In this document: one piece after another, positions 601-64,000 of the stretch | How positions within the stretch are numbered: the first letter of the stretch is position 1 | Layout of the letters: each line of letters opens with the position of its first letter | DNA from: Psammoneis japonica | Taxonomy: Eukaryota | Length of the DNA: 64,000 nt | Assembly: GCA_008632985.1 (NCBI GenBank) | Contig: QPGO01000089.1 | Coordinates: 186,001 to 250,000, forward strand | Reading direction: 5' to 3' | The notes under the pieces: generated by a model | The model's input: the letters and a program-made list of their open reading frames with translations, nothing else | Told to the model about the DNA's origin: nothing | The model's database searches: none | Made by a program: the position numbers and the translations under genes

Positions 601-889
601 TTTCCTCACAAAGAGATTCCCACAGAGAGAAGCAAAGATCTCAAAGCTGTGAACATCATTTTTCATTTTGCTGTTGTCAACAACAGCGGCAACAGGGTCT
701 TCATTCTTTGTCACCCTCTCATGTCGTTCGCGCATGCATCCCGGCTTTCATGGTCCTGACATGCCCCCCCAAACCCACAGCTTTGCTCGCCAAAGTGCCA
801 TCAGATGACAATTGATTGCAACACATTGGAAGAGTCTGTTCTTGATTTTGCTGCCCCCAGCATCTTTGCTGCCACTCTTGTTGCCAAGT

Positions 890-1030
890 GTGCATCTGGT
901 GTGTGAACCTTGCAACAAAACAGCTTTTGCTCTGAGGCTTTGGACTCTTGCAACAGCTCCTCCCTGCTGTGAATTCCAAAGAGATGACTGGAAGTTGGCA
1001 CATCATCTTCTTTGCAAGCTTGCCAAGCAG
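890..1030 (+). pseudogene. Possible MYND zinc-finger relic
   Basis: VCEPCNK...CCEFQRDDWKLAHHLLCK resembles the MYND end motif YC..ECQ..DW..HK..C. Confidence 0.35.
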
Positions 1031-7800: not shown

Positions 7801-8099
7801 GGACACCGGGCAGCCACTCGAGCTCACGCATGCCATTTTTCCAAGGCACCGCGTGTTTGATGACGTCGAAATCTAAAATCACAGGGGCTCCCATGAACTT
7901 GCATTTGAGATTGTGTTTTTCAGAGTCACACCGGTGGCAGCGGGTGCGGTTTGAAATGACAACTGGAATCATTCAATGCCATTGTAATGACAGAAATGAC
8001 ACTGGGTCTGGGTCACCTCTAGGGTGCCAGAAGCAAGTGGCAATCGAAGTTATTTTGCCGTTCGTCGGACCTCATCAAGTGGCTCCAACACAATGTGTC

Positions 8100-9300: not shown

Positions 9301-9909
9301 TGCAGCCATGAACAGAATCGAATTTGAAACTGTTTCACCTGCAACCCGATGGACTCTTTAGAATTTGTCACGTCTTTCTCATCATTTTTATTGTTTCCAC
9401 TGCCGAGCCACACCGACTCTTTGTTTCTGGTGTAAAGCAGTCTAACACATGTTCGTTCCCATGCATGGGTTGCTCATCAGCTTGTCACCATCAATCAAAT
9501 CAGGTTTGACGTGTGGAACTGGTTTTCCTCTAAAAGACGCATTGCACAAAAGCACAAGCAGAGCACTGGCGCAGTCTGCATGGGCATCCGGGACTCTCGT
9601 GATTTACGGAGAATGCGAATGAAGTTCACATGCATGCCATGCTCGTGCTCAAGAACTGTCCGGACTGTTTGCGGAGGCAGGAAAGCTGGGGCCCAATGTC
9701 TTGGATGATAAGATGATGGATGACGCACGTCAGGAATCCATGCTCAAGCACATTTCTCTACAGCACGAGTGGTGAAAGCAGAAAGCAGTGGAAAGAAAAA
9801 TGTGAATCAAAACTAGAGGAAAAGGTGCACACAACAGAGCTGCTCACAAAATCAAATCTGCTTCAAAAACCAAGCAGTTTTGCAGCGAGCAGATCATCGC
9901 ACTGCCCAA

Positions 9910-11225
9910 AACATGTCATCTTCATCCGTCAGCAGCAACGCGGACGTCAGCTTCTTGTTGCTGACGTGCATCAGCATGCTGGCCTCGTCCTTGCGCTTGG
10001 TGTCTGTGGTGGATCCTTCATTCTTGGCAACTGTCAGAGTGGCCCTCTGGACAACCCCATCTGGTTGCTGTCTGCACCATTGTCTTTCCTGAGATCAGTG
10101 CATTTGTTGGACTTGTTCAGCCATTCGCCAGAGGAATGGGCATCTTTGGGTGCATTCGCCGTGATTTTAGTCCAAACGATTGGTCTTTCCAGGCCGTGTG
10201 CCTCTTCATGTGGCTCATGATGATGATTCTCCAACTCATGGTGCAAGTTTCTCATGCTTCCGGTGGACAGTTCACGGCCGCGGCACCCTCTCAAGCTTGC
10301 GTGTTCTTTGGCTTCACCTTCATGCCTGCACACCTTGATTTTAAAATGCGCAACACCCCACGAGTTATCAACCTGAGCTGCTGTGGCATCCCGCTGACAA
10401 GACTGCAGATTCTGACACCGAACACCATGCAGACATTGAACTCGGAGACGACTGAGAGGTCTGTCTCCCTCTCGAGCTTTGACTGACCACAGCAGTGCCC
10501 CGCTCAAACTGTCCCAGCACAATCTTTGATGTGTTCTGAGACCATTTTGTGGGGAGAGTCATCACATGCTTGCAGTCTGCAACAATCGCTTTCCTGGTGG
10601 GGAATTGCATTTTCACTAAAAAAATCTCGCGCCAATTCAATGTCTCAAGCACTGTTCATCCCTTTTCTCTCACAGAAACTGACTCTCCTCTCAGCAATGT
10701 GCTCAGCAGTCAACATTGGCATTCTCTGAAGTCAGACAAAGAATGGAGACAATTGATTAAAGAAAGAGCTCAGAACATCTTGTTGCTCCTGGGCCCGGCA
10801 GTTTGCTCCCAGACATTTGAGGGCACGATTCTGAATGCTGCATTCTGGCAGTGAGAGAACGAGGCCGTCAGGTGCGAGACACAACATTCAACTTTCAAGT
10901 GCCCTCAACCAAATGCTGAGTTTTCAGCAACAGCCATTTCTTTTCGAATCGATCTGTGCAGTCACTGAATGTTTGCCCCCAACAGCCTCAAGCTTCGCAC
11001 TCTTTGCAGCTGACGTTGTCATTCTGTCATGTGATGCAATGCCATCGTGTTGTTGGCAACAGCCACACGAGACCTTTGGTTGTCTCTGTGTGGTCCCACT
11101 TGAACCAACGCACTCACTCACAAGACAATCAACCGTGCTGTTGGCTGTGGAAAGGTGCTCATCACAAGCATCGGCACGCAAAATCAAAAGTTGGAGTCCA
11201 ACTGGGGACGCGTTCCAGGTCTAGG
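9910..11225 (+). pseudogene. Decayed multi-pass membrane protein gene
   Basis: Hydrophobic segments in shifting frames, e.g. WSFQAVCLFMWLMMMILQLMVQ and FFGFTFMPAHLDFKMRNTP. Confidence 0.4.
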
Positions 11226-11549
11226 TGGGAACTCGCACTGCTGAACTGTGACATCGATAGTTTTTTGAATCTCGTCGTATGTCGCGCACGTAGAATTCTA
11301 CGTGATTTTTTGATATTTTGTGTCATTTTACGGTACACTTATTGAGCGATCCGTCCAAAAACTTTTGACATTTTTTGTTACAGCGCGATTCTATAATGTC
11401 TTAAGAATCGCGTAGGGCAGGTGCATTTGCAAAAACGTCGAGTGGTAAGGCATAATTGTGCACAACTTGGCCGTTTATTTGATGTGAAGACAAACATCCA
11501 TTAATTAAATTCTCGCACTACGGAGCTCGCAAGTAGAATTCTACGGGCC

Positions 11550-12215
11550 CAATGTCACACGGAGTCCCACCCAGGGCTGGAACGCGTCTGGGGAAGAAGA
11601 GCCACAGCAAGCAGAACCATTGTCATGGTCTTGCTCGAGCAAGGACAAACATCCAAGGAGAGACTTGCATTTGGGTCCACCAGAGGATGCCACAGCCACC
11701 ATGAGAACATGCGGAGTCGAGTCAAGTCGACACGTCAGGTCAACGAGGGTGGTTTCGTGTTTCGTCAATTGCGCCGACAAAGGGCAAAGTCATTCTGCCA
11801 ATTTTGAATGCTGCAGCATCAGAGCACTCAATCTATCTCTTTGTTGGTGTGTGATGTGTTTGCTTGTGGTTCCAATGCCGCATTGCTTCTTCTTTGCTCT
11901 TGGAAGCGACGACATCATTGTTGCGATGTTTTTTGTTGCAGCGCGGTGTGCGGTGTGGCGGAGGGAAGTGAATCTTGGAGTTCGGAGCTCCTGCCGTGAT
12001 GAATCTTGCCGATGTCATCGGGGTTCGCACACGACAAGCTCAAAACATGATGGTGAAAAACCGTTGGTTGCCCGCCACATTTTCGAAAAAATTTGAAATG
12101 GCCAAACCCGGGACAGGAACTCTGCATCACTTTGCTCATTGTTGCACGAAGCACACAAAAATCGCCGCCATTTGACTTTTTGAAACACATCGTCGTCTTG
12201 ATTGCCATGGTTGCT
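11550..12215. other. Short TpA-depleted block 3
   Basis: Nearly TA-free with CG retained; minus-strand relic EEAMRHWNHKQTHHTP looks like a Tyr->His converted sequence. Confidence 0.6.
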
Positions 12216-14311
12216 TCAGTTCTCTGCCAAAGGTGAGTCGATCGTCTCGTTCTCGTTGCGAATTAGATCTGCTGGAGTTAAGTCATTGAATGTCGTCCGC
12301 ACACGATTGCCATGTAGACCTGAAGGCTTGGGTCCTTGACGGTTTCCCTCTGTGCGTTTGATTGCGTATATCTTTGGAAGTCGGTTCGAGACGAAATGAC
12401 GATTGCCTGTCAAAGTAGTCCGTGGTTCCGACGGAGATACACCACGATTGCCAGCAAACTCGCTTCTTGCGTGTGCGCTGAATGCTTGTAAACGTCCAAT
12501 ACGGCAGTAACCCGGTGCCAACCAACGCACTTTTTAGTGCAACGGTTGTTTAAGTAGGAACCATATGAGGGCCAGCCTCTGCTTTCTTTTCTTTTTGAAC
12601 GCACGCTGAACGCCTGTAGACGTCGTGGACTAAGACGGTGTGCTTGATACCCCCGAAGGGCAACCTTTTTCGTGAAGGTTGTAAGGTGGTTCAGACCGCT
12701 TGAGTTGCTCATTGAGCATCTCATATCTGATTCCCCGTAGGTTTAATACTCCTATGGGTCGCCGGCCCGTTATATCAGCTATTCTCCACGTCCCACAGCG
12801 TTTGAAGATCTGTTTGTATCGTTCGTTCGTATTGATCTACTCGCTGAGTTATACTTTGTAACTCACACTCTTTTTTCAGATTTTGATTTCTATTTCAACA
12901 GATGATATGAATGGCGAAGCGTGTTGTTGAGAAGCCACGCTGACACTCGCATCTACAATTGCTCTGGATAGTGACGTTGAGGTTTCATTGTTATGGCTCT
13001 ATGGAATTTGAAGTCGCTTGCAAGAAGACAATGTATTGATTCAGATCGATAAGAGTTTCCTCAAGCTCCTTCAAGTATCTGACATTCGAGTCATTCGGGT
13101 TTAAAAATATGCTTCCCAACGTGCATCTACCTCCCATCTTAATCACGTCAAAGTAGCAGACGACACTCCTACGCAACAGGTGCGTCTCTGCGCTCATTCG
13201 GATCGATAAGGCTTTTTATGCTCTTCCAAGCATCTGATACGCGGAAGTGCATCAACCTACAACCTTCGTGAAGTCTCAGCAACAGACGATGCTCCTACTC
13301 AACCGGTGCGTCCATGAGCCACTTTGGTTGCTCCACTTGACGTGTTCTCCAAGGAATATAAAAGTAGCTAGCAAACGCTCCCTCGCACAGCTCGATGCGA
13401 CTCTCTAAGCTCTGACGGCTGATCCATCCCAATTTATGTGATAGTGGCTGTGCATTTCATGTAGTAGTCGACCCGAGCGCTCTCTCCAAGACATGCCCGT
13501 CGCTGTAATTTATTCAAGCGCTTGCATTCACTACCACCGCCCCAAGCCCGTAACCGTGTGTGCCCAAGTGGTGGGACAATCAGGATTCCCGACGTGGAGA
13601 ATCGCTTTCAATATCAAAGTGGTGCTTGCTTCATATGATTTCCTATTTCCTCGTCTGTATTTGCTGCAACTCCTTTCACAATTACTGACTGGGTGCTGCG
13701 AGTACCAAGATGTCTTCTTTAGCGAGCCAACATTGCCTGCTGTATTTTGGCTGCGACCATTCGTCTTGTCACACCATCAAGAACACGTGTCGCGCCAAAG
13801 CGTCCTTTGCAGCAATACGACACGATGACCAGGCCTAAATTCGAGCGACGGGAAAGCGGAAGGAGTAGATGTAGCACTTAATACCACCCGTCCCTCTCTC
13901 GTAATAGCTCCACACTCGGAGACGAGTGATAGGCCAATACTGTATCCCTCGCGAGTTTGACTATCCATCGTGGTACCCTAGTTGAATTATCCCAGAGCGA
14001 TATTAGATATGTTGCTTGACCATTTTGTAGTAGGGATAGCGTCACACATCGTACTTACACGTCTATCGTTATCATAGGCTCCGCACTCACTCTCTAGCAG
14101 TCTGCAATAATTGCTTCTTTTCTTATCGAGACTCACAACCCTCGCGCGTTTGGGGGCTGAACTAAAACAACAAACACAGAGGCAAACATGGGAAACTTTT
14201 TAGCTACTTGACATCCGCCTGTGTTAATAGTACGACATAACTAGCAGAACGACGTTCCGCCAAAGATACCCCGCCGTTCGATGACGGGTAGACTAGAGCG
14301 GCGCATTTCTT

Positions 14312-17422: not shown

Positions 17423-17689
17423 GGTGGCGGGTGATGCGTTCTTGATTTTTTGTGATATGATAATAAATACTGTAAATGAGAATCCGGGATTGGCGAATAA
17501 TCAGCAAAAATTAGCGTTTCGAGCGAAATTAGCCGAAAGTTCTCTTGGTATTGAAATACCCGTTTACGACGTCATCGATTTCACGCAAAAGTAATCAAAA
17601 TAGGCAAAAAATCGAGCTTAACTTTGAAAACTTTCTTTGAAAAGAAAATGCGCGCTGAAACCCATCCAAAAGCATCATACTCTGCAATC

Positions 17690-19900
17690 CGTCCATTTCT
17701 CCATTGGCACCAAACGCACAGCTGCAACTTCTGAAAGAACTCATGGATGAGGCACCTCTGTTCCAACTTCAATGGTGACACCGGCAGGCCACACCAGGGT
17801 GCCCGCACAGTGACTCACATCAAGAGCACACACAGTGGGCAACAGGGGATCATTTTGCTTCTGATGCGCGTCCAGCATTGACTGGTGCTCACGGCCCTGC
17901 TCATTCAATGGTGCAGCGCCATTGACTCATTGCCGCAGTGCATGCGATGTGACCTGATGTGACACTGCATCCATGCATGCACCCACATCCAAGCACCATT
18001 GCTTTTGATGGCACACAAGAAACCTGCACAACTGCTGTCGCCAGCGCTGCTCTGTCGCGCCAAGGCAAAAAATCCAGTGCTGAGCGAAAAATTCCACAAG
18101 CAGCCGCTCCCACTCCCTCACACATCTGAACACCTTGGCAACAACTTGCATGGATTGGCAGCCCAAAAGGGCTTCTTGTTGGGGCACTGCAGCCGGCAGG
18201 TCCCTGGTGATTGATCTGAAGCAAAAGCGACCCAGCAGGAGTCGCAACAGGAGGGCCGGGTGTTGTGAGTTTGCCAGACGCGCTCCAGCTCTAGAGGTGG
18301 GACCTTGCACTGCTGCACTGTGACATCAACAGTCTTTTGGATCACATCACATGCCACGCATGCACATTTCCACATGTCACATTCTGCGAAATTGTTTCAT
18401 GCTCCCTGTTTTGCGAAGCCAAAGGCTTTCTATTTTCAACATTTGTGAGAATGAAAATGCACTGGGTGTGTGGTCTTTAATGTCTGTTGAACATGCCCGG
18501 GCAAACTGTCAATCATGTGCTCCAAGCATGGAGGAGGAGATGCGTTCGCAAAGTTGCCTCTTTTTCTGTTTTGGCGATCATGTGAATTTTCATTGCAGTG
18601 CAACATCTGGTGTGCCAACAATCTGGGTCTGACCGTCTGCCACAATCTGGGCATTTCTTGACTTTGGTGCCAGATTTTTGTCAACTTGCAAGCCAATTCT
18701 CTCCTCAAACATGGCATGAGAACTGTGTGAGTTTGTGAGCTTCTAAAACCAAAATCGCTTCTCACTTTTAAGTGTGTCATTCCTTTCACATGATGCAGAC
18801 CTGCGCCCCAATTGACATTTGGGGTTTCTCGTTCTTTCAACACAAATGTTGCTGCTTGTGATCCACCCTCCTTTTCTGCCAACTCGCCCTGCATTTTATC
18901 TCATTGCCGCGCCATTTTCAAATCCAAATTCCCAATTGCCACACGTTGTTGCATCCAAACCGCATCACAGAATGTTTTTTTTTTAATTTTCACTTGTCTG
19001 GATGTTGTTGTTTGTTTCAAATTAAGTTCACACACCAGTTTGGTTGGTGGCCATTGCGGCATTTGCTGCTGCTCCGTTGCCTGCAGCCACCGCCTGCAAT
19101 GGCAGGTCCTCTCCCATTGGCGCCGCCCATCCTTCCTCTCTCTCCTTTCTTTTTTCCTCTCTTTTGCGTTTCTTGTTTTCCTCCTGAGACAAGTTTGTCT
19201 TCTCTCGCCTTCTCTCCTTGAACCATGCACCGAATCCCTGGTTGTTCTCTCTGTCTTTCACCACCTGCTGACACAGATCATTGCACTTCTCGATCCCCTC
19301 CTTGCTCCATCCTTGGTTACTCTTTGCCAATTCCCCCGCCGCCTGCGCTGTGTGCTTTGCAGGAGCAGCATCTTTCACAGTTGGCTTTCTTCTCCTTGCA
19401 ATGTTTTCTTCCTTTTCCAATTTCTCTGCCGTGTCCTTCACCTTGTTGCAGCAGTTCAAGCACACCAGCAGAGCAAGCGCCTCCGACGAAACCGAAAGCC
19501 ATTCCTGAAGCATGTCGGTTGTGCTTCTGCCAAACTGCGCTTGTCCCACCACCGTCGGCACCACAGTTTCCAAGAACCACACGCATGTGTCCTTGCCATT
19601 TCTTCCCTTTGTCAAGTCTTCGTAAGCCACCAGCAATCCCTCTAAAGCAGCAACTGCACAGACAATGGCAAAGGAAGAGACACTCATCCCGTTGGACAAT
19701 CGCCTCCAACACAATCACCGGCACGCACACATCTGCTTGCCTGTCATTCTCCTCCTGATGTTGTCCTGCACATTGTTCCTCTTTCGGTTGAGTTTGGTGA
19801 ACGGGAATCCGAGGCTTGCAATGCAAAAATGACGGGTGCATTTTGGTGGACGATCCAAAGGCATGAAGCGACATGTGTGTCGGTTTGTGATTCACGTCAT
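17690..19900. other. TpA-depleted block 4
   Basis: TA nearly absent; Tyr-poor, Cys/His-rich translations. Confidence 0.8.
18436..19700 (-). mobile_element. Decayed repeat/transposon-associated ORF
   Basis: SVSSEALALLVCLNCC...KHT...GWSKEGIEKCNDLCQQVVKDR resembles a high-copy diatom repeat-borne protein pattern (EA.ALL..N...KYT...GWS.EG...N.L...V..DR) recalled from memory; no transposase core or termini identified. Confidence 0.5.
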
Positions 19901-19972
19901 GAAACAGTGTAACTCACGTGCTTGTTTCCCCACTTTACACGCTGCCCGTGCTCCCAGGTCCGCGGCAAATCC

Positions 19973-26932: not shown

Positions 26933-27189
26933 TGCAGTCGTGTATTTTTTAAATCTTCCCGCAAGAGCTAGCTAACTAGAATGCATTTTTTTATGTTGCT
27001 CAGAAGTACCACCCTTAGAAAAGGTCATGATAACATGTGCTTCTCTAGTCCTTCTGCATCGGCATTGTTGCCGCCAGTTTCTTATCAGTCTTGGAAGCGT
27101 CCCCAGCTGTCGCCATTTTCAAAGCCAAGTTGCCGGATTCTGTCATCAAAGGTGCTCTCACTGAAAGATGCGGCGTATTAATTACAATG

Positions 27190-28900
27190 ATCGAGCTGTG
27201 TGACAAAAGATGGGCCCGAGTCATCTGCCAATTGCAGGAACTTTGCAGCTGAAAGCTGATGACATTTTGCATTCGACTCGTGATTCCCAACACCACTGGA
27301 GTAATTTCCCATGAGGTGGAATTGTGAATTGTGAATTTTGCTGCATGTTCTCAGGAACCGTGTTGCACATGTCAGGCTTCTGTCCAACAGAACAAGGTGT
27401 AGAAGCCACAAGCACCAGCAGACGAGTTGGGGATTTTCCAGTGACTTTATTTTCCTTTTCATTGCTGTGAGTGCCAATTCACCATGTGGGCCCTTCCACT
27501 GATCTTTTTGCACACTGCTCAGTCCACTTTGCTGGTGCTTTGTATTTGTTGTTGTTTCTTGGCAAAGGCAATGAGCCTTCACACAAGACAGTGGAGTTGG
27601 CTCCCAACAAACTTCACAATGAGATTTGTCCTCTGCAATCAGCCAACCACCCTTGCGGTCATCTCCAAACTGGGCAAACACAGCCAGAACTGTGTGGCGT
27701 CAGAATCAACATGGGCAAACACAGCACACTCAAAAAGGCCCATTTGACACACACCTCTCTGACATCTTTCACACATCCTTGTTGCCATTGTCTCTCTTTG
27801 GGACTTTTGCAGCTGAGCAAGACACTCAAACAGAAGAAAGATGGGAGAAGAAGCAAGTCAAGCTGCAGGGCACCTGAAGCTCCAAGAACAGGGAACTTCC
27901 AAAGCCTGCAAAGAAGAAGAGAAAGAGTGCACACCTGCTCTGTCCTGAGATCTGCCTTGTTTGCCATTGTCTCTCTTTGGTGGTCAGATGCCCAAAAATT
28001 GGAGAAAAGAGGAACAAGCAGCAAGCCAAGCTGCGGGGCACCTGACAAAGCTCTCCGAGAATGGGGCACTTTCAAAGCACCTCTTGCAGTGCTGCAAGAG
28101 CTTTGTGCAAATGGGCTTGTGCAAGGGACAGAGATGCTGTGAGGCTGGTCACTGCAGGAGACCTCTGCCTTCTGCATTTGAGCTTTTTCACTTCTCAAAA
28201 TTGCTGCAAGACCCATGTGAGAAGTCAGGGCCAGTGGGCAGCTCAACCAGGCATGCCCCACTCCACAACCCCTGCTGCCGCTGTGGCCATGCAGCAGCTG
28301 CCTTTCTTATTTGCTTGTTCCAGTTGTGCCAGATCAGGAACTTTGGCTGGCTGGCTGGCTGGAAAATGCCCCTCACATGCCCAGCCAAGCAGCTGAAAAC
28401 ATGTGCAGGAAAGCCACAATGATGTGCCCCCCTCAAAACAGGCAACCAAGGTCAGCAAATTTGCCCCCAGAGGCCCGCTGCAAAAAGCAGCCAGTCATGA
28501 GAGCCATGAGCAGAGTCCAAGCCCCCCAAGCTGCTCCAACTTGACATTGGTTTTCCAGCCTGCTCTGTCTCCTCGGGGGGGTGTTCGCAGAGATCTCTCA
28601 GCAGCTTGTCTCGCCCACCATGCTTGTGTCTGGCAAGCAAGGATGAGCACAAGAACCTGCCTCAAAGAATGGAAAAGCAGGGTGCACCCAGCAAGAGCAA
28701 AGAGAACATGTTGGTGTTAGAAACCCAACCAAAGTTGCTCAAGCAGCATCGTGTGTTTTCATTCTGCCCCTTCTCTCCAGCCATCGCAGGCAGCGTGACG
28801 GCACACAGCAAAGCTGCTGCTGTTGTGGACCTTGGCGGAGCTTGCATGACAAATGGCACATTGGGCAGTTGTCAAGTGACTGCTGAGCTTGCCACCATTA
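27190..28900. other. TpA- and CpG-depleted block 5
   Basis: TA and CG nearly absent; no recognisable family; flanked by a CTAG tract near 26967 and a CTAG/CG-rich tract at 28915-29160. Confidence 0.8.
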
Positions 28901-38535: not shown

Positions 38536-38894
38536 CGTGTATACACTGTGTATGTTTTGTTTCCTTTGTGACGAGTAGCGATGGATCGTCGATATTGTCT
38601 GCACTCCGACTACAGTAGTTGTTGGTTGGTTTGGAGGTCGGAGGCACACAGGCAATGCAACAGTATCGCATCATCAGGCCAATGCTGATTGAGGGATGCG
38701 CTGTGGGTCGCTCTGCGCTGCCGAAGCGTTTCGCGCGAACGCACGCAACGCACTAATAGAATCTTTTTTTGCCTCCGAAAAAGGCTCGCGTGTTGTCCGC
38801 AGACAGCCCGTCCTCTGCCTTCTTTTCGCATCCTTTCTTCCGTGCACCATAGAAAATGCTGCCACTGGAAGGTCTCAGCTGCTCACAAGCTAGC

Positions 38895-41800
38895 AAATGC
38901 TGCTGCAACCAACAAGAAGCAACAGGCTGGCGAGGAAAGAAAATGCCCAAAGTGTGAGAGATAAGCACCGGCGCTTGCCAGCACCTTCCTCAGAGACTGT
39001 GTGTTGCCTGGGGCACTTGGCAAGTCCGCGCACTTCCCAACAAATCTGTGGAGACATGCCAGAGCCTGCACAACCAAAGAAATTTGTGGCAGGATGATCC
39101 TGCACATTTTTGTGTGCAGGGCCAAGAGCCATTTGCTTTGAAAACTCAAAACAACCCCCCCAGCTTTTCAAAGGCACTTGAGAAAAACCCAGCCATTGTG
39201 TTTTCTTGCAGAAGTGCTGTGCTCCAAGAACACATTGAAACAACCCAGTGACAAGCTCACACCACTCAAGAAAGCCCCTCAGAATTGTTCCAACATCCAA
39301 AGAAAGGAACGGAAGAAACCTGAAATTCAGAGCACAGGAGGGGCAGCAACGTGCTGCTCGCCAAACGAGCAGCACCTTTTTTGCCCCAGCTCCAGAATCT
39401 CCACATGGTGCAAAGCATTTGGCAAAAGCAGTGACAAGCACAGATTTGTTCAAGGCAAATGCCAGAGTGCACTGCTGCACATTGCAGCAGACTGTTTTAC
39501 AGCGCAGCTTGCATGTGGAGAAAAAAGAGCAAGAGGGAAAGTGGACACACCTGCAACAAACTTGCAGAAGATGTGAAACATGAGGGTGGCTGATTGCACC
39601 TGTGCTTCTTTTTCTTGAGTTTGCAAGCTGGTGATTGCTCTGTTGTGCAAAAGATGAGCATGTCAGCAGCCCAAACAAGTCATCAAGTTGAGAGATCATT
39701 TTCAGGAAGAGTCAGCTCACTTTTTGCCTGCTTGTTGTGCAGAGGACCGTGACAATGCAATGGGCAAGACACAGCTCAGTCAAGCAACAAGTGCTTCAAT
39801 TTCAACACTGCTGACAGTGGGCTGGTGGTGCAGCAAGTCTGAGTTTGTGTGTGGGAGATGTCAAGGAGTGCCTGTTGTTTCATTTGCAGATTGCTGTCAG
39901 CTCCTCTCCTTTGCATTGATGCCACCATGATGGATGGGACCCATCTTGTGGCTTGTGCTGCAAGCAAGCCCTGGTGTTTCAGGGGTGGCAAACACACTTG
40001 GCAGTGTCAGAAAGAGCCCTTCTGCATCTGTGGCAGCAGACTGTTCCATGCTCAAGCATGGAATTGCAGGTCTGAGCATCTCACAGGATGAAATTGATCC
40101 ATTTGGTGGGAAACCTGAGCTTGAGGTGGAGCAACTCCAACACAGCAACTGCTGGCAGCAGAACAACTTGGCTCAAGTCCTGAACTTTTGGCAGAGCAGC
40201 AGTCAGCAACTGCCCTGTGGCAGCAATGGAGAAGGTGGCTGAAGCATGCATTTCTTGGCACAAAACACCAACATCAGGAGCCAGTGAGATGCTGGGCTTG
40301 TTTGAATTCTGCCAAGATTTTGCAGCTCAGTTGGGATGTTTTTTGCATTTTTCTTGCCAGAATCAAGCAACTGCAATGTCATCATTCTTGGTGAAGGAAT
40401 GTGAAAATCATTGCATTGTTGACTTTTGCCAACTTTTGTGTTCATTTCAAAGCCATGTCTGGGTGTTTCAACATGGCCCCCCTGATGTCAGTGTGTGCAA
40501 TTTGTGCACACCATGATGCATTGAATGCTCAAAACTTTCATTCACAACCACAGCATTTCCTTCCCCACAGGAGCTGGAAACTTTTCTGTTGCTTCTTGTG
40601 CTGCCAGCCCTCCTCCATGCCTTGTGAGAGCCCTTGAGTGGAAAGTGCAGAACCAATTGTGCCCTGGCTGGCAAGTCCGCATGAACAGGAGCACAAGTGG
40701 CTGCCTTGGGGCAAATGCAGGAAGCTGGCAATGGAGCAATGCTGTGGCAGTGCATGCATGGTTGTCAGTGCAAATGGGCAGCACATCATGTTGAAAGGCC
40801 ATGCAGAGTCATGTTGGCATGTGGGTGCAAACCCGCTGGTGGAATCCACAATTTTCCATCAAACAATGCCAGGCTCCATTGCTGCATCAGAGGATGACAA
40901 TCTGTCATTTTTTAGCTTCAGGCTTGATCCACAAATGATGCTGGACCCCCTTGGACTGCCACAAAGGCTGTCATTGCTGGCACATCAGGTTTGCTGATGC
41001 ACTCACACCCACACTGCCAGCCAAAGCTCTCAATTCTTTGACAAGACTCATTCCTCCAGAAATGGTTGCCAAGTGGCCTTGTTGCTGCAAACGCTGACTT
41101 GGAGCACCTCAGCAACTGAGGACAATGGGTGGCAGGCAGTTGAATCATGAGAGTGTCCTGTGTGCTGCAGTCCATGGTGAGCAAGACAGCATGGTTGAAT
41201 CAGGCAAAGAGAAGGGCCATTGGTTGCAGAGGCCATCACCTCACCACAGCATGACAGCAATGCCCACCACATGTCACCACAGGATGATGCTCCTCAATCC
41301 TCAACTCAGACAGCCAACACTGAGAATTTTGCTGGCGTGCATTAAAATCAAGTGGTGTTGGAGTGGAGAATTGGTGGAGCTCTGCACTCTTCCCACAGCA
41401 GCAGGAGAGGCTCCAAAGAAATGTGGCAGCTTCTCCATGTTGTCATTGCAGCCACACTTTCCAGCCAGCACCATTGCCGCCAGGCTTGCACTCCTGGATG
41501 AGTGGGGCACTTTGTTCAGTCTGTGCACCAGTGTGGGGTTGGAGCTGGGTCTTGCACACATTTCTTGAAATGGACATGGGGCAAGGCAACACATGCTGTG
41601 CAAAAACGCAAGAGCTTGGTTTTGGCTCTTCTTGCAGTGGCTCAGCTCAGATTCTTTTTGCTTTCTTGCCCTTTTTCCTCTTGGAAAATTTCAGCTGTTG
41701 TTCTGCAATTGTGCCAAAAATGACTGTCTCAAGATTGCAGCAGTGTGAAAAAAGCCCATTGTGGCAGTTGTCCAGGCAAACAACCTGGAGCAGATTCAGG

Positions 41801-44800
41801 TGACATCAGCAGACAGTGCTGTCACATCTGTCAACTCACCCACCATGTTGAAGATCAAGGATGCACACATGTCCTCACATCTGCAGTGTGGCTGCCAAAG
41901 CCATGGCAAATGCTCCCCACTGGAGACTGGAGCAGTTTCAATGGACATTGCCAAGCTTTTCTGTGATGCACAAAAGCAAGTGATTGCACCTCTGGCTGAG
42001 TTCATTGCACCAATCATTTGAGCTGATAATTGAGGCAGCTGCCCAGGTGGTTGCTGCAGAGAGGGTGTGCAGCAAGAACCCTCCACAGGGAGAGCAGCGC
42101 TGACACCTGCAATCTGATGGGTGATGACAGAGTTGCTCATGCCAGTCAAATCACAAGCAAGCTGGGCAATGAGATTCTTTCTGCACTGACATTGGCAAAT
42201 TCAGTTGACAAGCACTTGACAACACCATTGACCATGGGTGCCGCAGCTGCAGCTGAAGCTCTCCAAGCACCAAAACCCAAACTCGCTGTGCCTCTTGGTT
42301 TTTGAGGATCAACACCAAAGCCTCCTGCATTGCTCAAAAGATTGGGGCCAACCACAAGGCCACAGTGGTGCTGGTTGGCGGGAGGCAGGCACAGCTAGAA
42401 AAGCAGAAAAGCACAAGCTGAGGTGGCAGCCTGGCTGCTGAAATCTTCTGTGCCAAGGGATCCAAAAAGGGCTGCAATCTCACAGAGTTTTCTGGGGTTG
42501 CAATTTTCTCAAAACCATGAAGCAACCCATGCTGACAAATGAAATGTCATCACAAGTGTCATCCCAAGCATGTGCTGAGAACAAATCCATGGGTGTGAGC
42601 CCACATTTCCAGATTGGCAGCAAGCTTTTGTCACTCAGGGGGTGGAGCTGTGGATGTTTCCTTGTCACTTGCCTCAAGAATGGTTCAGCCAGGCTGATCT
42701 GAGGCAGCTGTCATGGCTTCAGCACAGTCATGGCTGCTGTGCCTTTGAAGTGAGAGCCCCTCCCAAAGTGTGGTTGACCACTGCATCTCTCCACCACATC
42801 TGCCATCTTCCACAAAGCCTTCAGAACCCACAAATTTTGTGGCAAGCATTTCACTTTGTTGTGTCCTGGAGCCACCTGTTCCTGGACGCATTGCTCTTGG
42901 CTTTTGTGGAAGCAAGAAACAAGTGCACGTGCATCATTGACCATGGCCAAGTGATGTGCCCGACCCACCATTGCCATGTGCATGCACGCACGCACATGCA
43001 CATCTGTCTTCAGAGGACCATCTGGGCTGGCTGCATGTCTTCAGGGGGGACAGATGGGTTGGATGGGACAAATGAAACTTGCATCTGATCAGACCACTGA
43101 GTGGTCAATGAAATGCTCTCTTCAAGATTGAAAGTCAATTGGGTGTGGACATTGTGAAAGAATCCAAAAACAAGGCTGAGTCTGAAATTCTTTTTTGACA
43201 TGGGACTTTGTTCATGATCACCGCAGTCACTCAAAGAGGCCTGGGTTGATGCTGGCATTTGACAAATTGTGATGTGACAACAAGGTCAGGTTGGTCAATG
43301 AGCATTTCTTGTGACAACAGGAAGAATGGGTGACAACAGGGGTCAAATGATGATGTTCTCCTGACAAATCATGGTTGCTGCTTGACATTGCAAACAGAGT
43401 TCTGGAGAGCAGTTGACATTGGATGAAGGCAAGAACTCAAATTTGCAGTTGTGGTGCCTGTCAAAAGGGGCTTGGTTCAAAATGAGGAGTTTGTTTTGAG
43501 AGGACAGTCTCTCCATTGTGTCAGACAAGTGACAAGGACACCGGCACGCCACTGTTGTCATGCAAGCAGCAGATCAGCAGCTGGGCTGTGTGGCACCCAA
43601 TGCAACAAGGAGACAAATTCAGCAGAAAGACCAAAAATTGCAACTGGCAATTGATCCAAAGCTCTTCCAAACAAATGAGTCAGCTCCAAACAAGATGCTA
43701 AGCCACAAAACAAAACATTGCAGATCTGCAACAGCCCAATTTTGTGGCTGAAAATGTGTCAGTGTCAAAATGATGATTGGAGCCCAAATGACAGTGACCA
43801 CCTTGCAGCTGGTTTTCAAAAATTGTGACACAGGAAGCTCATTTCTTGTCAATGGATCCTTTTGTCAAACACCAAAATGGGTTGCTGACAACTCCTCTGC
43901 AGAGCAGAAAACAAAGCAGTGTGTCTGCCCCACTCACAAAAAAAGGTGGAAAACATTGCAGCTGCATCTTGCAAGCACCAGCATGACAACAGAGGCCAGC
44001 AACAAGCACAACAGAAAATGCAAGAACCCCCACATGCCAGGGAGTTCTCTGAGCATCTTGTTGCAGGCTGCTCCCAAAGAAACAAGTTCAGCCAAGACCA
44101 GCTCAATTGATGTTCCAAGTTTTTCAGCACTGTCACCTGTTGGGCAGCAAAAAATGCTGATTGATTTGCTCTGGCAAGCAGAGCATGCTTTTGCACTTGT
44201 CATTGCTGTCAAGTCCAACAAACACAGCATGGAGCTCCTTGCAATGAACACAGAGCTCAGATGGCAGCAAGGAGTGACAGTCAAGAGAAGTCTTTCTCCT
44301 GTGCTGTTTTGAGTTTTTCTCTTGGGCAGCCTTGCTGCGAGCAACATTGGAGGCAACATCAACTGAAAAGACAGTGTGCATGAACAGAGCAGCAGAGGGG
44401 AAGGAAGTGCAAGGACAGCCCCGAGGACATGCAGAACAATTTTGAGGAAGAAGAGAGTGCAGCAGGGAATGAGAGTGATGACACAAGGTTGAGCATTGCT
44501 TGCCAAAAAGTGGAGAGGTGCTGGGTGCAGCAGTGCACAGTGGTGCACACCAAAATCACTCACAGAAGCACACATGGTTGCTCTGGATGCAAGTGGAGTC
44601 AAAGAAGCACCAACACATCCCAAATGTTCTTCTGGAAGCTGTGGAGTGGATGTTTGAAGGCCACACTCCACAATGGGTGGAGCAGATTCTTTGTTCTGGT
44701 GGCCAGGTTTGCCCTGGGGACAACAAGAAAAGGTGTCACCTTTGAATGCAAGGCAAAGCTCTTCATCATCAAAACAAAAAAAGAACCAACCTGACACTTT

Positions 44801-46990
44801 GATGAGAAGATGTGGCAACTTTTCCTCTCCAGAGCAGTGGCATCAACGTTCTGTGCTTGTTTTGCACAGGAGGTTGCAGAGACAGCGGGCTGCTTTTGAC
44901 AAGGTGATGCTGTGGCACCACGAGCAGCACTTCTTTGAGTCTTGCTGCAAGCTTCACAGCAACATGACCATCAAACACACAAAAATGACAATGTCCAGCA
45001 AGCTTTTGCATTTCACCCCAGTTGGTGGGAGGCTGAGCAGTTCTGACATGGGCTCGAATTGTCAAATGTTGCCATTGAGGAACAGCTGCGTGTGCCCTTT
45101 TGTCCCCCCCATTCTCACAGCAGCGGGCAGATGCCCCTCACTCTCACCATCCTCGTCATTGACAAATGCAAGAAATCCCACCTGCTTCTCCCTTCTCTGT
45201 GAATGCATTCCTTGTGTGGCACATTTGCCATTGCCTTGTTGGTCCATTGTCTCTTTCAATGGTGATGCAAAATGTGATGCATGACATGTGAGATGGATGT
45301 GTGCAGTGGATGCTGAACCTGACAAGGCAAGATGGATGAGCCAAGCCAATTCAATCAAAATAAATTGCTTGTCATGTCATTCGTGCTGAAAGTGTTGGGC
45401 AAGTGCAATTGGCTTGCATTCGCATGGACTGGTCTCGTGGATGAAACAGTCAAGTCAACTGAAATGTTGTGCTCTCTTTGCTGGCAAATGTTTGCATGGT
45501 GCAAAAGATGCGCCAATGTTCTTCACGCAAGAGGTGGTGAATGTTGCATCATCTGGTGTTGATTGCAGTTGTCTTCTTGTTGATGTCATTGCACAAGTTT
45601 TCCCGCAACAGCCCAGTTGCAACAAGAACCTTTCATCAACAATTGGCAACAATGCCACCTGGAAGAAAGGTTGGCTCAAAAGACAAGAAGCCCAGAAAAA
45701 AGCAGCGCTCCTTGACTGAAGAACAAAAAGCTGAAAGGAAGAGAGGAAAATCTTGATGACGAAGGCACAAAAGGCCCGGGGGGCTTGTCAGGCCTTTTTT
45801 CTGGTCAACCAGCTTTTGCTGTCAATGCATCAAATGACAAGGGAGCAAATGGCTCACTTGGGCAAGAAGAAGAGAAACAGCCATCAGATGAGGAGGGAGA
45901 ATCCACTCCTGTGGCTGCCCTCATGGCTGCCCTCAACATGCCGCCTGCAATGGCAGAAGTTGATGGTGCATGGTGTTGATGATTGTGATGGCGAGGACAT
46001 TGACCAAGCCACTGAAGATGATGAAGAAGAAAATGATGAAAACTTTGATGACAACAGCAGGCAGGCAGGGTGATGCTGAATTGTCTCCAAGCAATTTGTG
46101 CTCTCATCTGCAGGCAGAGACAAGCAGAAACTTCACGGCACTGAATGAGAGATGGCTGTTGAAACCAGTGGATGACAAGGACTGGAGAATTCCAGTTGCC
46201 ATGGCAAAACATGTTTGTGAAAAACTTGGCATTCATTGTGGTGAACCATTGTGCTGCCTTGAGGTCCCAGCTTGGCTCCCAGGGTGCTAAAGTGTTGAGG
46301 ACAGCACGCCAACATGGGCAAGACAAATGCGAGAACTTCAATGAAAATGGATGTCCAACTGGTTGGTTGTGGTGACATGTGAAGAAGCGCGTGCCTTGTT
46401 TGATTGTGGTTTCACACTGGACAGTGTTGTTCCCACATGCAAGCTCCAATTTTGTCATGACAAGCTGCTTCCCAGGAGCCGTCGAGCAAAGAGGGCTGCA
46501 GAAACTTGAGCTTGCACTGGCTTTCAAGGGCAACCGAACCCTTTCACAGAGATTTCAGGTCATGGCACATCAAGTGGCACCCCCTTCCTTGGAGGCACCA
46601 CTCTCAGTCTTGCCGGGGAACCACCCCTTGGCTCTCTGAGGCCATCTCAAACCAAGGTTCAAGTGACAGTGGGTCCCGCCCCACGACTTGTGTTTTCTGG
46701 AACAAAATGCACACCAGACATGCTCAAGATCAGAGGCAGTCAATGAACCAAATCCTTGCTTGTTTCGAACGTGGAGAATGAATTGTGGAGGAATGTAAAC
46801 ACATGGGCAAGCATTCTTGGTGTCCCAGAATGATTTTGTTTGTGCTCCAGGAAGGATGGCGGCTCCTCGTTGTGGCAATGAATGAAGGAAAACATTCCGT
46901 GGCGTCTGGAACAAATGCACAGAACTTTGTCATGGTTCAACATTGTTGTTGCAAAACATGTCCATTGCCAGAGATGATCCACATGCCGCC
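38895..46990. other. TpA- and CpG-depleted block 6 (about 8 kb), decayed repeat/TE-like content
   Basis: Runs of hundreds of bases with no TA and no CG (e.g. 39900-40600); dense spurious ORFs ending almost only in TGA. Confidence 0.9.
45650..46290 (+). mobile_element. 5' fragment of a repeat/transposon-associated ORF
   Basis: MPPGRKVGSKDKKPRKK, an acidic tract, then MLNCLQAI..LQAETS...RWLLK...CEKLGIHCGEPLCCLEV..WLP, recalled as a diatom repeat-borne family (..EP.YY....WLP). Confidence 0.4.
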
Positions 46991-47044
46991 TCTAACTTCG
47001 CGGTTTTGGCTGTGGCCCGTTCCCGATTGGCGTCAAGGAAGCGA

Positions 47045-47270
47045 TCGACCCTTTAGCAGCACCCAGGGAAAACGAAACGGAGAGAAGCCTCTAGAGAGAG
47101 AGTAGAATCAACTTACATGCCGGTGGGTGGTGGGGCTAGTTCATGCAGTGTCATGCGGTCGACCCTGTAGTAGTATCTAGGGAAATCAAAACGAGGGAGA
47201 GAAGCCCAGTGGAGAGTAGAATAACATACACACCGGTGAATGGTGTGGCTAGTTCATGCAATGTCATGCT
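47045..47270. repeat. Two-copy tandem repeat, period about 114 bp
   Basis: TCGACCC...GGGAAA...GAGAGAAGCC...GAGAGTAGAAT...CCGGTG...GGCTAGTTCATGCA.TGTCATGC at 47045-47158 and 47159-47270. Confidence 0.85.
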
Positions 47271-60639: not shown

Positions 60640-60784
60640 ACAATGCGATCAGCTGCTTCCGGACGTCATACCTCATGTACATAACACTGCTAAATTTAAA
60701 ATAGAGATAATGCGTAACCTGCCACACTCTACCTTAACCCAGGTCACACTTGCACCCCCTTTACTTATGACCTGTCCTTTGCAT

Positions 60785-63700
60785 GACAAGCGCAGAGCAC
60801 GGACTCACAGATGATGGAGGTAGTCCATGCGCATTCCCCACAGCTTTGTACACAGTGCCTGACGCCTTCCATTCTCAAGAAGTTTCAGTTGAACTGGCAT
60901 TGAGGCCCACGCATGTCTGTCCACATCACAACTTGCTTCAGGTCAATGTCGTTGCATTTGAATTGGCTTTTGCAATGTTGAACAATCTCAAGAAGAGACA
61001 TGCATTGTGGAAGACAGGATGCCTCTTCTTCTCTTTCGATGTTTTTTCACCAAAGAAGGGCCAGACATCACTTCTTGTCCACACTGTTGTGACCAGTGCT
61101 GTGATTGTCCTCAGAGAGCAAACAACAACAAAGATGCAGAGGCTGGTGTGAGCATCCACAGAACAACTGCCAGTGTTGGTCAGGTGTGCTTGATGCACTC
61201 TCCAACTCTGGGTGGGACCTTGCACTGCTGGGCTGTGCATTTCTGCATGGCTTTTGGACTTTTGCAGCATCATTTTGCAGCACAATTGTTGGGCTGTCCA
61301 TTCAACAACTTTTGACATTTTTTCTGTGGGAATCTGCTGAAAACAACCCATGTGATGCAAAACACTCAAATCAAAATCTGAGTGTTTGTGCATCACAAAG
61401 CTGTTCTTGGTTGGCTTCTCTCAGTTTGCTTGTGAAAAAGAGAGAACTTGATTGACAGTTGTCTGATGAGGCGAGCTCAGTTGCAAATGCATTGGTCTGA
61501 AATGTGCCCAGTTGGGTGACAGCAAAGCCCATTTTGCACAAGGACAAAACTCATTGTGGAAGATGGATGGAATGCGCTCCAGCCCTGTGGGTGAGACTTT
61601 GTGCGACATTTGCCCACAGAATTCTGTGCATGAGCTGCCTCTGCACTTTGCACTTTGGCCAATGAACACATTTGTTTTTGACATTTTTAAATGAACAACC
61701 ACCAAGTTTGTGGCAAATCTGTGCCTGCTGTGAGCACTTGAAGTTTTTGGCAAGCTGCCTGTCCTGGGCACCTGCACAGCTGTTGAAAGAGAGTGGATCA
61801 CCCAACAACTGCACTGCACTGTGATTCAAAATTTTGCCTGAATCATGCAGAAATGACAAAAAGAACATCAACGCCACAGTTCAGCAGTGTGAGGTCCCAC
61901 CAGTCAATGCTGAGTGGTGCTGCCAAACTTTTGTCTCAGGGGAGCTCAAAGAAGCTTTGCACATGCAACATGGCCACGAACCATCTGACTTGCACTGGCA
62001 CTGCAATTGACACAGACTCAAGTTCTCTCTTCAGCATGCTCCTCAGTGTGAGCAGAAGGGTGACCTTGTCAACTCCTGATGTGACAAGATCCACAACAAA
62101 CTCAATGATCTGCTGTCCTTCCTGACATGCAAAATGCCTGCTGTCATCAACCCTGGTCACATCTCAGGAAGCCCAAGCTCCACAAGGCAGTTCAGCAGGT
62201 TGCCAAGTGCAGCTGCAGACTCAAACAAAGTTGTGAAAGAGATTGTGAGGTGCATCATGGGTGTGGAGATGTTCTTCTCATTTGTTGCTGGTGGAGTGAG
62301 GTGTTGGCTGTGATGCTGCTGTGTTTTGTGGATGTCAGAGAGTGGCCAACACTTCAATGCTGAGCCTTGCTTGCCCAAAACTCCAGAGCAAACTCTGGCA
62401 TCAGGGAGATCACACAAGGAACAGGAGTCATTTGAAAATGTTTTGTCATTGACAACAAATTTGTTTTCACAACAAAAAATGCAAAACTCTTGTGTGAGAA
62501 AATGTGGTGCACAACATCACACTGGAGAGTGGTTGGAGCCAACAACTTTGTGGGAACTCAGCTGAAATGTTGTCTGATCAAAGGCACTTTGATTTGCACA
62601 CTGAAGAACAACACCTTTGATCAGATGACATCAATTGACTGCCCAAGAATTTGACCTTCAAACAAGGACAGATGGGCAGACTGACAGCGGTCATTTTTGC
62701 TCTCCTGCACAAATTTGGCACAATGACTCTGAGAGCCATGATGACTCCTGTTGAAACAGAGAACAAACAACAAACCTGCTGGAGAGAGGAGGAGAAGAGT
62801 CAAGGAAGGCACCAGCACCCACACTCTTCAGTTTGAAAAAGACATTTTGGCACAAAAACAACAACTCTCACAACAGCCAGAGCTGCTTTCCTCTGCTTGT
62901 GTGGCTCTTGCACCCCCCCCAGCCATGTTCCAGCCATGAGTGCCAAACAAAAAAGTGAAAAAACGGACATTTTGTTGAGCCGATGCAGATTTCGTGTGGC
63001 TCATTTGTGGGTGCTTGAGTGTGCTAAAAAGACCCACCACCTGAGTGTGCCCAAACAGGCAGCTGCTCTTCATTTCTCATTCTCATTGAGTTGAGAAAGC
63101 ACCCCCTTGACACAAGGGTCATTGATCTAGAGTTGGAGTTTGCATTTGTTGTTTGTCAGCATGGTCTGACAAAACCAGCTGAAAGTTCACGTCATGAAAA
63201 CATGAGCTTGCCAAGATTCCAGGGATCCACAAATCTGATTCACAAAGAGTGCAGACACCATGTGCATCATGAAGGAAGTGATGAAATGTGGTGTCTTGCA
63301 TGCCAAAATGGACCTTTTGCATTCACAAGATTTTGCGCTGCTTTTTGCACCACAGAAAGTTGACACAAAACAGACCAGCAATGCACAGAAACAACCTGGC
63401 AAGCCAACTTAGATGAGGCTGATTTAACGGCACTGTTTTTGTGTTGAGCACTTTAAGATCAGGGGGGCAAGGTGGCCTGAGAAGAGGGTGTGCAAATTTT
63501 GCAGTTGAAAGTTGCTGAAATCTCAACAAGTTCATGGTCATTGACATGATCAAAAAAGAAATGGAGCCAACAAACTCAACCAGCAAAACATGATGGCTCT
63601 GATGGCATCATTTGCATTGCCACAAGGTGGAAAAAAGCAGCTGCTGCTGTGTGTGGTCATGTTCATTGCCAAGTCAGCTTCACTTTTGGGGCTTGCTTTT

Positions 63701-64000
63701 TACTGAAAAAACAGCTCTGATGTGTTCCAGCTGTGCATGAACAAAAAAATGCAAAAAATGGACATTTTTTCATGCAGACATGGGTTTCACATTGTTGCTG
63801 ACTTGAGAACAAACTTGCAAACCCAAAACTTTGTCTCTTGCACTTGCAGTTGCATCAAAAGCATCCCAGCACAAAGAGCCATGGATCTGGAGCTGAAATT
63901 AACACTTGCCCTTGTGTGACTTGACAAGCCAATTAAAAACCCATGTTGCAAAAAGATTGGCTCACCAAGATTCTGCATTGCTTTGGATCTGGTTTTGTGC
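60785..64000. other. TpA- and CpG-depleted block 7 (runs off the window)
   Basis: TA and CG nearly absent; remaining TA mostly in TTA/TAA. Confidence 0.88.

Follow-up and report, generated by a model that had tools for sequence, protein, structure and literature searches.

Candidate region-targeted hypermutation of TpA to TpG and CpA in sharply bounded blocks of diatom nuclear DNA

The window analysed here is a 64,000-nucleotide stretch of contig QPGO01000089.1 (positions 186,001 to 250,000, forward strand; GenBank assembly GCA_008632985.1) from Psammoneis japonica. It holds seven blocks in which the dinucleotide TA (TpA) is almost absent, and the largest of these, referred to as the main block, is the principal subject of this analysis. 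Between the blocks lie open reading frames (ORFs) of ordinary, intron-poor eukaryotic genes, as identified by Pfam among the 52 window ORFs of at least 120 residues. They include coatomer beta, a PPDK-like enzyme, dephospho-CoA kinase, a scramblase, a class-V aminotransferase, and an Asp/Asn hydroxylase. The best matches of the coatomer beta ORF have 72-81% identity and are diatom proteins wherever the source is named, with relatives in Triceratium, Attheya, Odontella, Cyclotella, and Thalassiosira. Judged by its genes, the window is diatom nuclear DNA.

Composition separates the blocks from this host sequence. The whole window has a G+C content (GC) of 48% and, relative to the counts expected from base composition, an observed/expected ratio (O/E) of 0.42 for TA and 1.38 for TG/CA. 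Sliding windows and a list of TA-free gaps delimit seven near-TA-free stretches, which were assessed within the 64-kb window and together occupy 23.6 of its 64 kb (37%). The remaining 40.4 kb contain 1709 TA where 2786 are expected (O/E 0.61), with an O/E of 0.96 for CG and 1.18 for TG/CA and a GC of 47.5%. Within the blocks, the O/E of TA falls to 0.02-0.13 and those of TG and CA rise to 1.4-1.9, while that of CG is 0.11-0.29 in four blocks and 0.54-0.86 in the other three. The main block (38895-46990) contains 10 TA against 530 expected (O/E 0.02), 67 CG against 480 (O/E 0.14), 917 TG against 492 (O/E 1.86), and 938 CA against 516 (O/E 1.82), which gives a mean TG/CA O/E of about 1.84. Its GC is 48.7%, compared with 47.5% outside the blocks. 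At the TA density of the host sequence it would contain 342 TA rather than 10 (Poisson log10 P = -130), and all blocks pooled would contain 997 rather than 86 (Poisson log10 P = -306); the longest TA-free gap measures 1,662 bases (P = 3e-31). Block edges are sharp, with TA dropping from about 1 per 24 bases to almost none over at most 100 bases.

An earlier note on this DNA, made from the sequence alone, had described seven TA-poor and TG/CA-rich blocks next to genes of normal TA content. Sliding windows of TA and CG O/E across the 64 kb recover the same sharp TA-poor blocks, and the bounds refined from TA positions (Table 1) agree with the coordinates of that note within about 70 bases. Its observation that TAA and TAG stop codons vanish also holds: both are gone from the blocks, and Tyr makes up 0.03% of six-frame codons there, a necessary consequence of the absence of TA.

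Table 1. Coordinates of the blocks and associated features in the window; TA and CG counts are observed/expected.
Feature	Coordinates	Composition and remarks
Block, runs off left window end	1..2460	TA 4/165; CG O/E 0.29
Block, TA erased with CG nearly kept	5967..11221	TA 42/323 (O/E 0.13); CG O/E 0.75
TA-normal island	11222..11542	22 TA in 321 bases; divides one larger block (5967-12263)
Block, CG intact	11543..12263	TA 1/41 (O/E 0.02); CG 36/42 (O/E 0.86)
Block holding repeat copy B (18276-18393)	17679..19909	TA 11/135 (O/E 0.08); CG O/E 0.54
Block	27184..28898	TA 7/103 (O/E 0.07); CG O/E 0.18
Main block, 8.1 kb	38892..46992	TA 10/530; CG O/E 0.14; GC 48.7%; no recognisable gene
Multi-copy piece of main block	43109..43775	Summed contig depth 218 in run X1, against about 60
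Multi-copy piece spanning right edge of main block	46444..47100	Summed contig depth 442 in run X1
Block, runs off right window end	60767..64000	TA 11/238 (O/E 0.05); CG O/E 0.11; internal paralogue pair

The TA and CG lost from the blocks reappear as TG and CA, so that the process is one of conversion and not of removal. Over all blocks, the losses per base of TA (0.0387) and CG (0.0331) compare with a gain in TG plus CA of 0.0676. A regression on 128 windows, each of 500 bases, gives a mean TG/CA O/E of 1.889 - 0.530 TA - 0.388 CG (R2 = 0.88), where a 50:50 conversion predicts slopes of -0.5. When TA and CG are converted in silico in host sequence, the result matches block composition with r = 0.98 over the 16 dinucleotides, compared with 0.77 for unmutated host sequence; for the 12 dinucleotides not directly involved, the corresponding values are 0.85 and 0.59. 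Within the block at 5967-11221, the mean TG/CA O/E is 1.515, against 1.525 predicted by mass balance in a hand calculation. GC stays level in the blocks, at about 48-49%, because the AT to GC change at TA balances the GC to AT change at CG.

The two losses can be told apart. In the blocks at 5967-11221 and 11543-12263, TA is erased while CG retains an O/E of 0.75-0.86, which shows that the loss of TA does not hinge on that of CG and is ahead of it. This upholds the distinction that the earlier note drew between the TA signature and decay of CG through 5-methylcytosine (5mC). The deficit of CG with an excess of TG/CA, the feature expected of 5mC-driven CpG decay, is itself present (slope -0.39 per unit CG), and we infer that this component reflects deamination of 5mC in silenced DNA.

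Both strands are affected alike. TG and CA counts are about equal in every block (917 and 938 in the main block), and they follow one another along the main block in random order (z = -0.34 in a runs test), the other blocks giving comparable values. Equal counts in random order imply that both strands are struck equally, site by site. The 86 TA that survive in the blocks stand in a non-random context (85 classified; chi-square P = 6e-18). With Y for pyrimidine and R for purine, YTAR sites (TTAA, CTAA/TTAG, CTAG) make up 45 of the 85 survivors compared with 282 of the 1,709 TA outside, a 3.2-fold enrichment, whereas RTAY sites (ATAT, ATAC/GTAT, GTAC) account for 4 of 85 compared with 529 of 1,709, or 0.15-fold. 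Relative to host density and with strands pooled, the fraction of TA remaining is 0.03 for TAT, 0.05 for TAC, 0.10 for TAG, and 0.20 for TAA. The favoured site is thus 5'-TAY if adenine is attacked or, equivalently, 5'-RTA if thymine is attacked. Because TA is self-complementary, T to C at 5'-TpA fits the data as well as A to G does. The earlier note had proposed that TA to TG and TA to CA are one event, A to G on either strand; the in-place, strand-equal conversion is borne out, while the choice of adenine as the attacked base is not, given that T to C fits equally.

The direction of change is visible where related copies can be aligned. Repeat copy A (11206-11317), in the TA-normal island, is homologous over about 115 bases to copy B (18276-18393), which lies within a block (alignment score 143, where 300 controls reached at most 66.5). 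None of the five aligned TA of copy A is kept in copy B, four being CA and one AA; of its ten CG, five are CA, two are TG, and three are kept. An extension of this alignment beyond 115 bases was not significant, with 79 of 300 controls scoring as high, and was dropped. Small as it is, this comparison with an intact paralogue gives the direction that the earlier note predicted, and TA to CA polarity is shown, as far as the alignment goes, in one paralogue pair.

A second pair of paralogues, 63068-63241 and 63829-63995, lies within the block at 60767-64000 (score 153, where controls reached at most 83.5) and differs by 50 transitions and 7 transversions over 161 aligned bases. The aligned pyrimidine-purine sites comprise 7 CA/CA, 7 TG/TG, 7 CA/TG, 2 TA/TG, and 1 CG/TG, so that TG and CA are discordant at 7 of 21 TG/CA sites. 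CA opposite TG requires two changes unless a palindromic TA or CG was resolved independently in each copy, which places the conversion after the duplication. As far as aligned copies can show it, the conversion of TA to TG/CA took place in situ.

The island at 11222-11542 has a normal to high TA density and normal CG, and it opens with a copy of the short dispersed repeat. It is probably a younger insertion, which arrived after the surrounding DNA had been converted; alternatively, it looks like a piece exempt from the conversion process.

A second data set allows two versions of the locus to be compared. Run X1 is a public DNA run whose contigs, at a word depth of about 60, were aligned to 27101-47100; the counts that follow refer to the differences listed, 30 more being unlisted, and they leave out positions 43196, 43198, and 43476, where part-depth paralogous contigs align. 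Among the differences listed, the main block has 36 differing letters (31 events) in 7,453 bases and the flanks have none in 9,543 bases (Fisher P = 1e-13). The 31 listed events consist of 6 TA<->TG/CA changes, 9 CG<->TG/CA changes, 5 TG<->CA double changes, 7 other transitions, and 4 transversions, which places 20 of the 31 at TA, CG, TG, or CA sites. By window site, and again among the differences listed, X1 differs at 4 of 9 covered TA, at 3 of 56 CG, and at 0.15% of others. The block at 27184-28898 shows one listed difference (28284, TG versus CG). X1 agrees with the main block at 99.5%, the absence of TA included, and counted from the listed differences its version holds about 8 TA where the window holds 10. 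This is an excess of divergence between two sequence versions and not a measured rate. Under any reading of X1, the block diverged in place and the flanks did not, mostly at sites derived from TA or CG.

Copy number in X1 bears on what the blocks are made of. X1 contigs jump over 43277-43741, 43386-43425, and 44350-44960, and those of the two multi-copy pieces in Table 1 are 90-95% alike, with deletion variants. Together with the short dispersed repeat, these pieces establish that block material is at least partly repetitive. Just outside the right edge of the main block, a tandem pair of units of about 115 bases (47041-47269; 80% alike) lies within a piece that is multi-copy in X1 and in a further run, X2. 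The latter, whose kind is guessed as DNA, aligned to gene regions only and not to the block. Outside the blocks, two X1 contigs cover 36509-36746, one identical to the window (depth 52) and one variant (depth 28) with 10 differing letters and 9 gap positions, marking a heterozygous or duplicated spot. X1 also has a 9-base insertion relative to the window at 35161.

Protein and repeat searches give the blocks no further identity. None of the 250 block ORFs of at least 60 residues reaches a Pfam gathering score in a search at E <= 0.05. Sub-threshold matches to Keratin_matx (2.3e-4, in Cys-rich sequence), Asp_Arg_Hydrox (0.049), DUF5641 (0.007), and Integrase_1 (0.019) were rejected as chance. 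With tblastn, 23 window ORFs matched the blocks at a best E of 0.12, so no block resembles a gene of the window, and the earlier note's proposal that duplicated genes are targets finds no support in the window. A 302-residue ORF at 43937-44842 has no HMMER hit among 1.84 billion representatives, and the chance of such an ORF arising in DNA whose only stop is TGA is about 0.02 by hand estimate. The 244-residue ORF at 7674-8405 has no homologue in a word-index search, the ORF at 46573-46929 finds only two 16-residue chance matches among metagenome contigs, both in TA-normal DNA, and viral contigs hold no relative of the two block ORFs compared with them. A codon-usage scan for coding frames in the blocks is weak, real genes themselves scoring only 0.09-0.19. 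The relic proteins with Tyr to His/Cys, Val to Ala, and Leu to Pro changes that the earlier note described are a matter of codon logic, no relic having been found by Pfam, tblastn, HMMER, or word-index search. A purine/pyrimidine-coded self-comparison of the window yielded only two short pairs and no long terminal repeat or terminal inverted repeat around the main block. The nucleotide self-comparison yielded seven hits, mostly outside the blocks, and the blocks are unlike each other. Tandem-repeat, Rfam, and tRNA searches returned nothing relevant.

Several observations concern the DNA between the blocks. A repeat family at 52124-52460, 55140-55947, and 57027-58150 is 72-80% alike over hits of 323-338 bases and has normal TA and CG, which means that duplication at such divergence is not sufficient for TpA erasure; the earlier note's suggestion that the process acts on repeats is not demonstrated in the window. 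One 500-base window (15501-16000), between a short-chain dehydrogenase gene and the scramblase gene, has the opposite bias, with an O/E of 1.55 for TA, 0.43 for CG, and 0.69 for TG/CA. A 378-residue ORF on the reverse strand (52861-53994) carries a C-terminal ADP-ribosyltransferase domain (Pfam ADPrib_exo_Tox 4e-12, ART 7e-7). On the forward strand, consecutive ORFs at 23819-24658 and 24687-26636, 28 bases apart, hold the two halves of a PPDK_N plus PEP-utilizers domain, and the split of PPDK_N at 24658/24687 reflects a very short intron or else a frameshift within a single gene. Isolated N stand at 5173 and 5789; the sequence is otherwise complete.

The closest known system is the TpA-restricted A to G/T to C hypermutation of the chlorarachniophyte Bigelowiella natans (Mettrop et al., bioRxiv 10.64898/2026.01.13.699255, April 2026). 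According to the parts of that preprint compared here, 231 of 302 nuclear mutations in mutation-accumulation lines fell in two integrated viral regions. De novo mutations were almost all A to G/T to C and without exception at TpA; they arose at about 6e-7 per site per generation, in some lines only. The same preprint reports 124 clusters of TpA-poor, CpA- and TpG-rich windows enriched for unannotated genes and genes like those of transposable elements (TEs). Integrated DNA of nucleocytoplasmic large DNA viruses (NCLDVs) and virophages and TE-like sequences are its targets, and its authors propose an ADAT2-like DNA adenine deaminase. The earlier note knew of no named mechanism for TA erasure, a statement that this preprint makes outdated.

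The likeness to B. natans is close. Both systems have TpA to TpG/CpA transitions in bounded nuclear regions, a TpA-poor and CpA- plus TpG-rich footprint that is mostly without annotation, and greater diversity between two sequencings of the locus, and both hosts are marine algae of the SAR supergroup (stramenopiles, alveolates, and Rhizaria). The substitution characteristic of the B. natans type, TpA to TpG/CpA, is found here along with CG to TG/CA, as is confinement to discrete regions with excess diversity. The systems differ in that the present host is a diatom, a stramenopile, whereas B. natans is a rhizarian. Erasure has gone much further in the diatom blocks, where TA O/E is 0.02-0.13, whereas the preprint gives a rho of 0.45 for the NCLDV region and a virophage region that is still TpA-rich. 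CpG decay in four to five of the seven blocks and a measured preference for RTAY over YTAR set the diatom apart from the main text of the preprint, and in a term search of the preprint text available, "diatom", "CpG", and "trinucleotide" do not occur. No viral or TE protein is recognisable in the diatom blocks, and a de novo rate is given for B. natans only. As far as searches show, the diatom case belongs to a kind first described in 2026, the literature search having returned only the B. natans preprint as precedent.

Other systems share parts of the signature. Fungal repeat-induced point mutation (RIP) likewise works as a regional and irreversible hypermutation by transitions in DNA that is non-genic or repeated, in a dinucleotide context, with sharp blocks and loss of coding. 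RIP turns CpA/TpG into TpA with falling GC in a fungal host, whereas the blocks of this non-fungal host turn TpA into CpA/TpG with GC level. The TpA excess, CpA/TpG deficit, and AT enrichment that mark RIP are not found here, where TA O/E is 0.02 and TG/CA O/E 1.84 in the main block, and the earlier note was right to call the process its opposite. Duplication triggers RIP; unmutated repeats that are 72-80% alike and converted paralogues are both present in the window. PMC7884421, in the text available, concerns ordinary RIP indices and has no bearing on TpA erasure. Decay of CpG through 5mC resembles the loss of CG to TG/CA in four to five of the seven blocks, and diatom TEs are reported to be CG-methylated via DNMT5 (PMC9998398, from the text available). 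Such decay cannot remove TA (997 expected, 86 seen) and does not account for the whole signature.

Adenine deaminases acting on RNA, namely ADAR, TadA/ADAT2-ADAT3, and fungal TAD2-TAD3, share the A to G outcome and a T (U) directly 5' of the edited base, and the UAC substrate of TadA resembles the TAY preference of the blocks. They act on RNA and on one strand, unlike the heritable change on both strands of DNA seen in the blocks. APOBEC3 and AID also defend by mutating invading nucleic acid in a short context. Their C to U change occurs at TC, CC, or WRC (W being A or T) and is strand-coordinated, driving GC to AT, whereas the change here is AT to GC at TpA and uncoordinated.

The explanation we favour, and regard as probable, is a combined one, in which enzymatic, region-targeted DNA modification at TpA in silenced or foreign sequence is accompanied by a slower CpG decay of the 5mC type. 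The blocks would be non-genic, partly repetitive diatom nuclear DNA that was hypermutated in place. Palindromic TpA would become TpG or CpA, each site being hit on its own and both strands being equally likely to change, in a process that works best at RTAY (5'-TAY on both strands) and worst at YTAR, with CpG to TpG/CpA decay from 5mC deamination in silenced DNA overlaid. Sharp block edges imply that a discrete unit is targeted, which may be an inserted element or a chromatin domain. Since nearly all differences between the two locus versions fall within the block, the process would be ongoing or recent. The agent would be an enzyme directed at silenced or foreign DNA, serving in genome defence as proposed for B. 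natans, and the chemistry would be adenine deamination, with A converted to I and read as G, by a TadA/ADAT-like deaminase.

The nearest competitor keeps the regional TpA hypermutation and changes the base attacked. A TET/JBP-type dioxygenase or other enzyme would modify the T of 5'-TpA, yielding a base such as 5-hydroxymethyl- or 5-formyl-uracil, which mispairs with G and leads to T to C, giving TA to CA from one strand and TA to TG from the other. Every sequence result fits T to C after a 5' purine (RTA) as well as A to G before a pyrimidine. Dinoflagellate 5-hydroxymethyluracil is enriched at TpA, although a literature search returned no supporting paper, and 5-formyluracil can pair with G. 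No result of this analysis points to such a base in diatoms, and the only published proposal for the signature, in the preprint text compared, is adenine deamination. In tRNA, the substrate of TadA/ADAT has an invariant U before A34, and bacterial TadA sees UAC; the preference for 5'-T and TAY resembles these substrates, and fungal TAD-dependent A-to-I mRNA editing is reported to prefer U at -1. Because of this resemblance, the fungal preference, and the proposal of the B. natans authors, adenine deamination by a TadA/ADAT-like enzyme is moderately preferred over a thymine-directed route, and we consider the latter unlikely as an account of the blocks. Less probable again is a passive by-product of silenced or methylated chromatin, in which error-prone or biased repair or replication in heterochromatin leads to slow accumulation of changes. 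CpG decay typical of methylated DNA in most blocks is consistent with such a route, as are the 11 of 31 listed X1 differences at other sites, which point to lower fidelity in the block generally, and the failure to demonstrate any repeat or viral identity as trigger. Specificity for a dinucleotide with its flanking bases is hard to reconcile with it, and we know of no repair bias specific to one dinucleotide with a flanking-base preference. The loss of TA is complete where CG O/E is still 0.75-0.86 and hence much faster than 5mC decay, and the B. natans process, reported in the preprint as active in some lines only, suggests regulation.

The remaining explanations are improbable to a greater degree. 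Foreign DNA free of TA and CG on arrival, owing to donor composition, would suit the sharp boundaries, which fit insertions, and selection against TA and CG would yield the same composition; we hold either to be very improbable. We know of no donor with a TA O/E of 0.02, a TA-normal copy of the dispersed repeat exists beside the converted copy, paralogues diverged by TG/CA discordance after duplication, and the remaining TA and CG are the sites that differ between the two locus versions. For selection, Pfam and HMMER reveal no function on which it could act. Editing of retroelement transcripts from A to I by ADAR- or ADAT-like enzymes, followed by reverse transcription and integration, can draw on the documented 5'-U preference of such enzymes (in the sources as available). 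ADARs are known as metazoan enzymes. Editing one RNA strand would yield TA to TG only, and the one-strand A to G pattern is not found here; equal TG and CA without strand runs exclude editing of one strand followed by retro-copying. Divergence occurred in place at a fixed locus and between neighbouring paralogues, and Pfam finds no reverse transcriptase relic among the 250 block ORFs; this route is barely credible. Scarcely more can be said for a sequencing or assembly artefact, such as miscalls at modified bases. The single-base indels described below, the two N in the window, and doubt about the independence of X1 would accommodate one, while X1 at about 60-fold word depth reproduces the block at 99.5% with its lack of TA, conversions are visible between paralogues within one assembly, and both the mass balance and the context bias have the shape of a biological process.

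Several points weigh against the explanation we favour. X1 may represent the second allele of one diploid clone, a later state of the same strain, or another strain, alleles and strains not being separable because contig depth cannot tell them apart, and X1 and the assembly may not be independent. Six contigs of X1 agree on TG at 43700, where the window has TA, and this resembles a back-mutation or an effect of paralogues more than an ancestral TA that was retained. Eleven of the 31 listed differences fall outside TA- and CG-derived sites. Seven single-base indels separate X1 from the window in 38783-42504, where they cluster within the left half of the main block and at its margin, with none listed in the gene region 27101-35000; they could be real divergence or poorer consensus quality in the block. 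Part of the block divergence may thus reflect generally relaxed fidelity or assembly quality. At the level of tetranucleotides, mass balance shows no correlation (r = -0.02), which may be due to mutation at neighbouring sites and unknown ancestral composition. An unmutated source copy of the main block did not turn up, and its polarity is accordingly read from mass balance, one 115-bp pair elsewhere, and unpolarised differences between two sequences. An origin of the blocks as TE or virus has no support from Pfam, HMMER, viral, or metagenome matches. ADAT2/3 are universal tRNA enzymes, so that finding them would be no proof. That the process serves defence is something we infer, and a by-product of heterochromatin-specific repair would leave an identical footprint.

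In its widest form, the proposal is that diatoms have an enzyme system for editing double-stranded nuclear DNA at 5'-TpA, with RTAY as its best site, and that it acts on silenced or invading sequences faster than 5mC decay does. Transposons and viral inserts would be erased beyond recognition by homology, as in the 37% of this window that the blocks fill. Together with B. natans, this would constitute a SAR-wide or repeatedly evolved defence and would imply a natural DNA adenine deaminase or thymine modifier. We advance this tentatively, with slightly more doubt than confidence.

The blocks suggest that a large share of the diatom DNA that defies annotation consists of what conversion has left of silenced elements. 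Such elements retain a normal GC and go unnoticed by homology-based repeat finders, and the repeat content and insertion histories of diatoms may consequently be underestimated; a simple scan of TA O/E would expose such regions and could show how widespread they are among eukaryotes. Present adenine base editors are laboratory-evolved TadA variants, and a natural enzyme that changes A:T to G:C within a defined context of double-stranded DNA would be of interest to research on base editing. If a dedicated pathway is at work, it would be a mirror-image counterpart of RIP outside the fungi, in major primary producers of the ocean. Model diatom species are genetically tractable, which would open the enzyme and its targeting signal to direct tests if such a pathway exists. 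The footprint carries a discovery made only months ago into a lineage of major ecological importance that is open to experiment.

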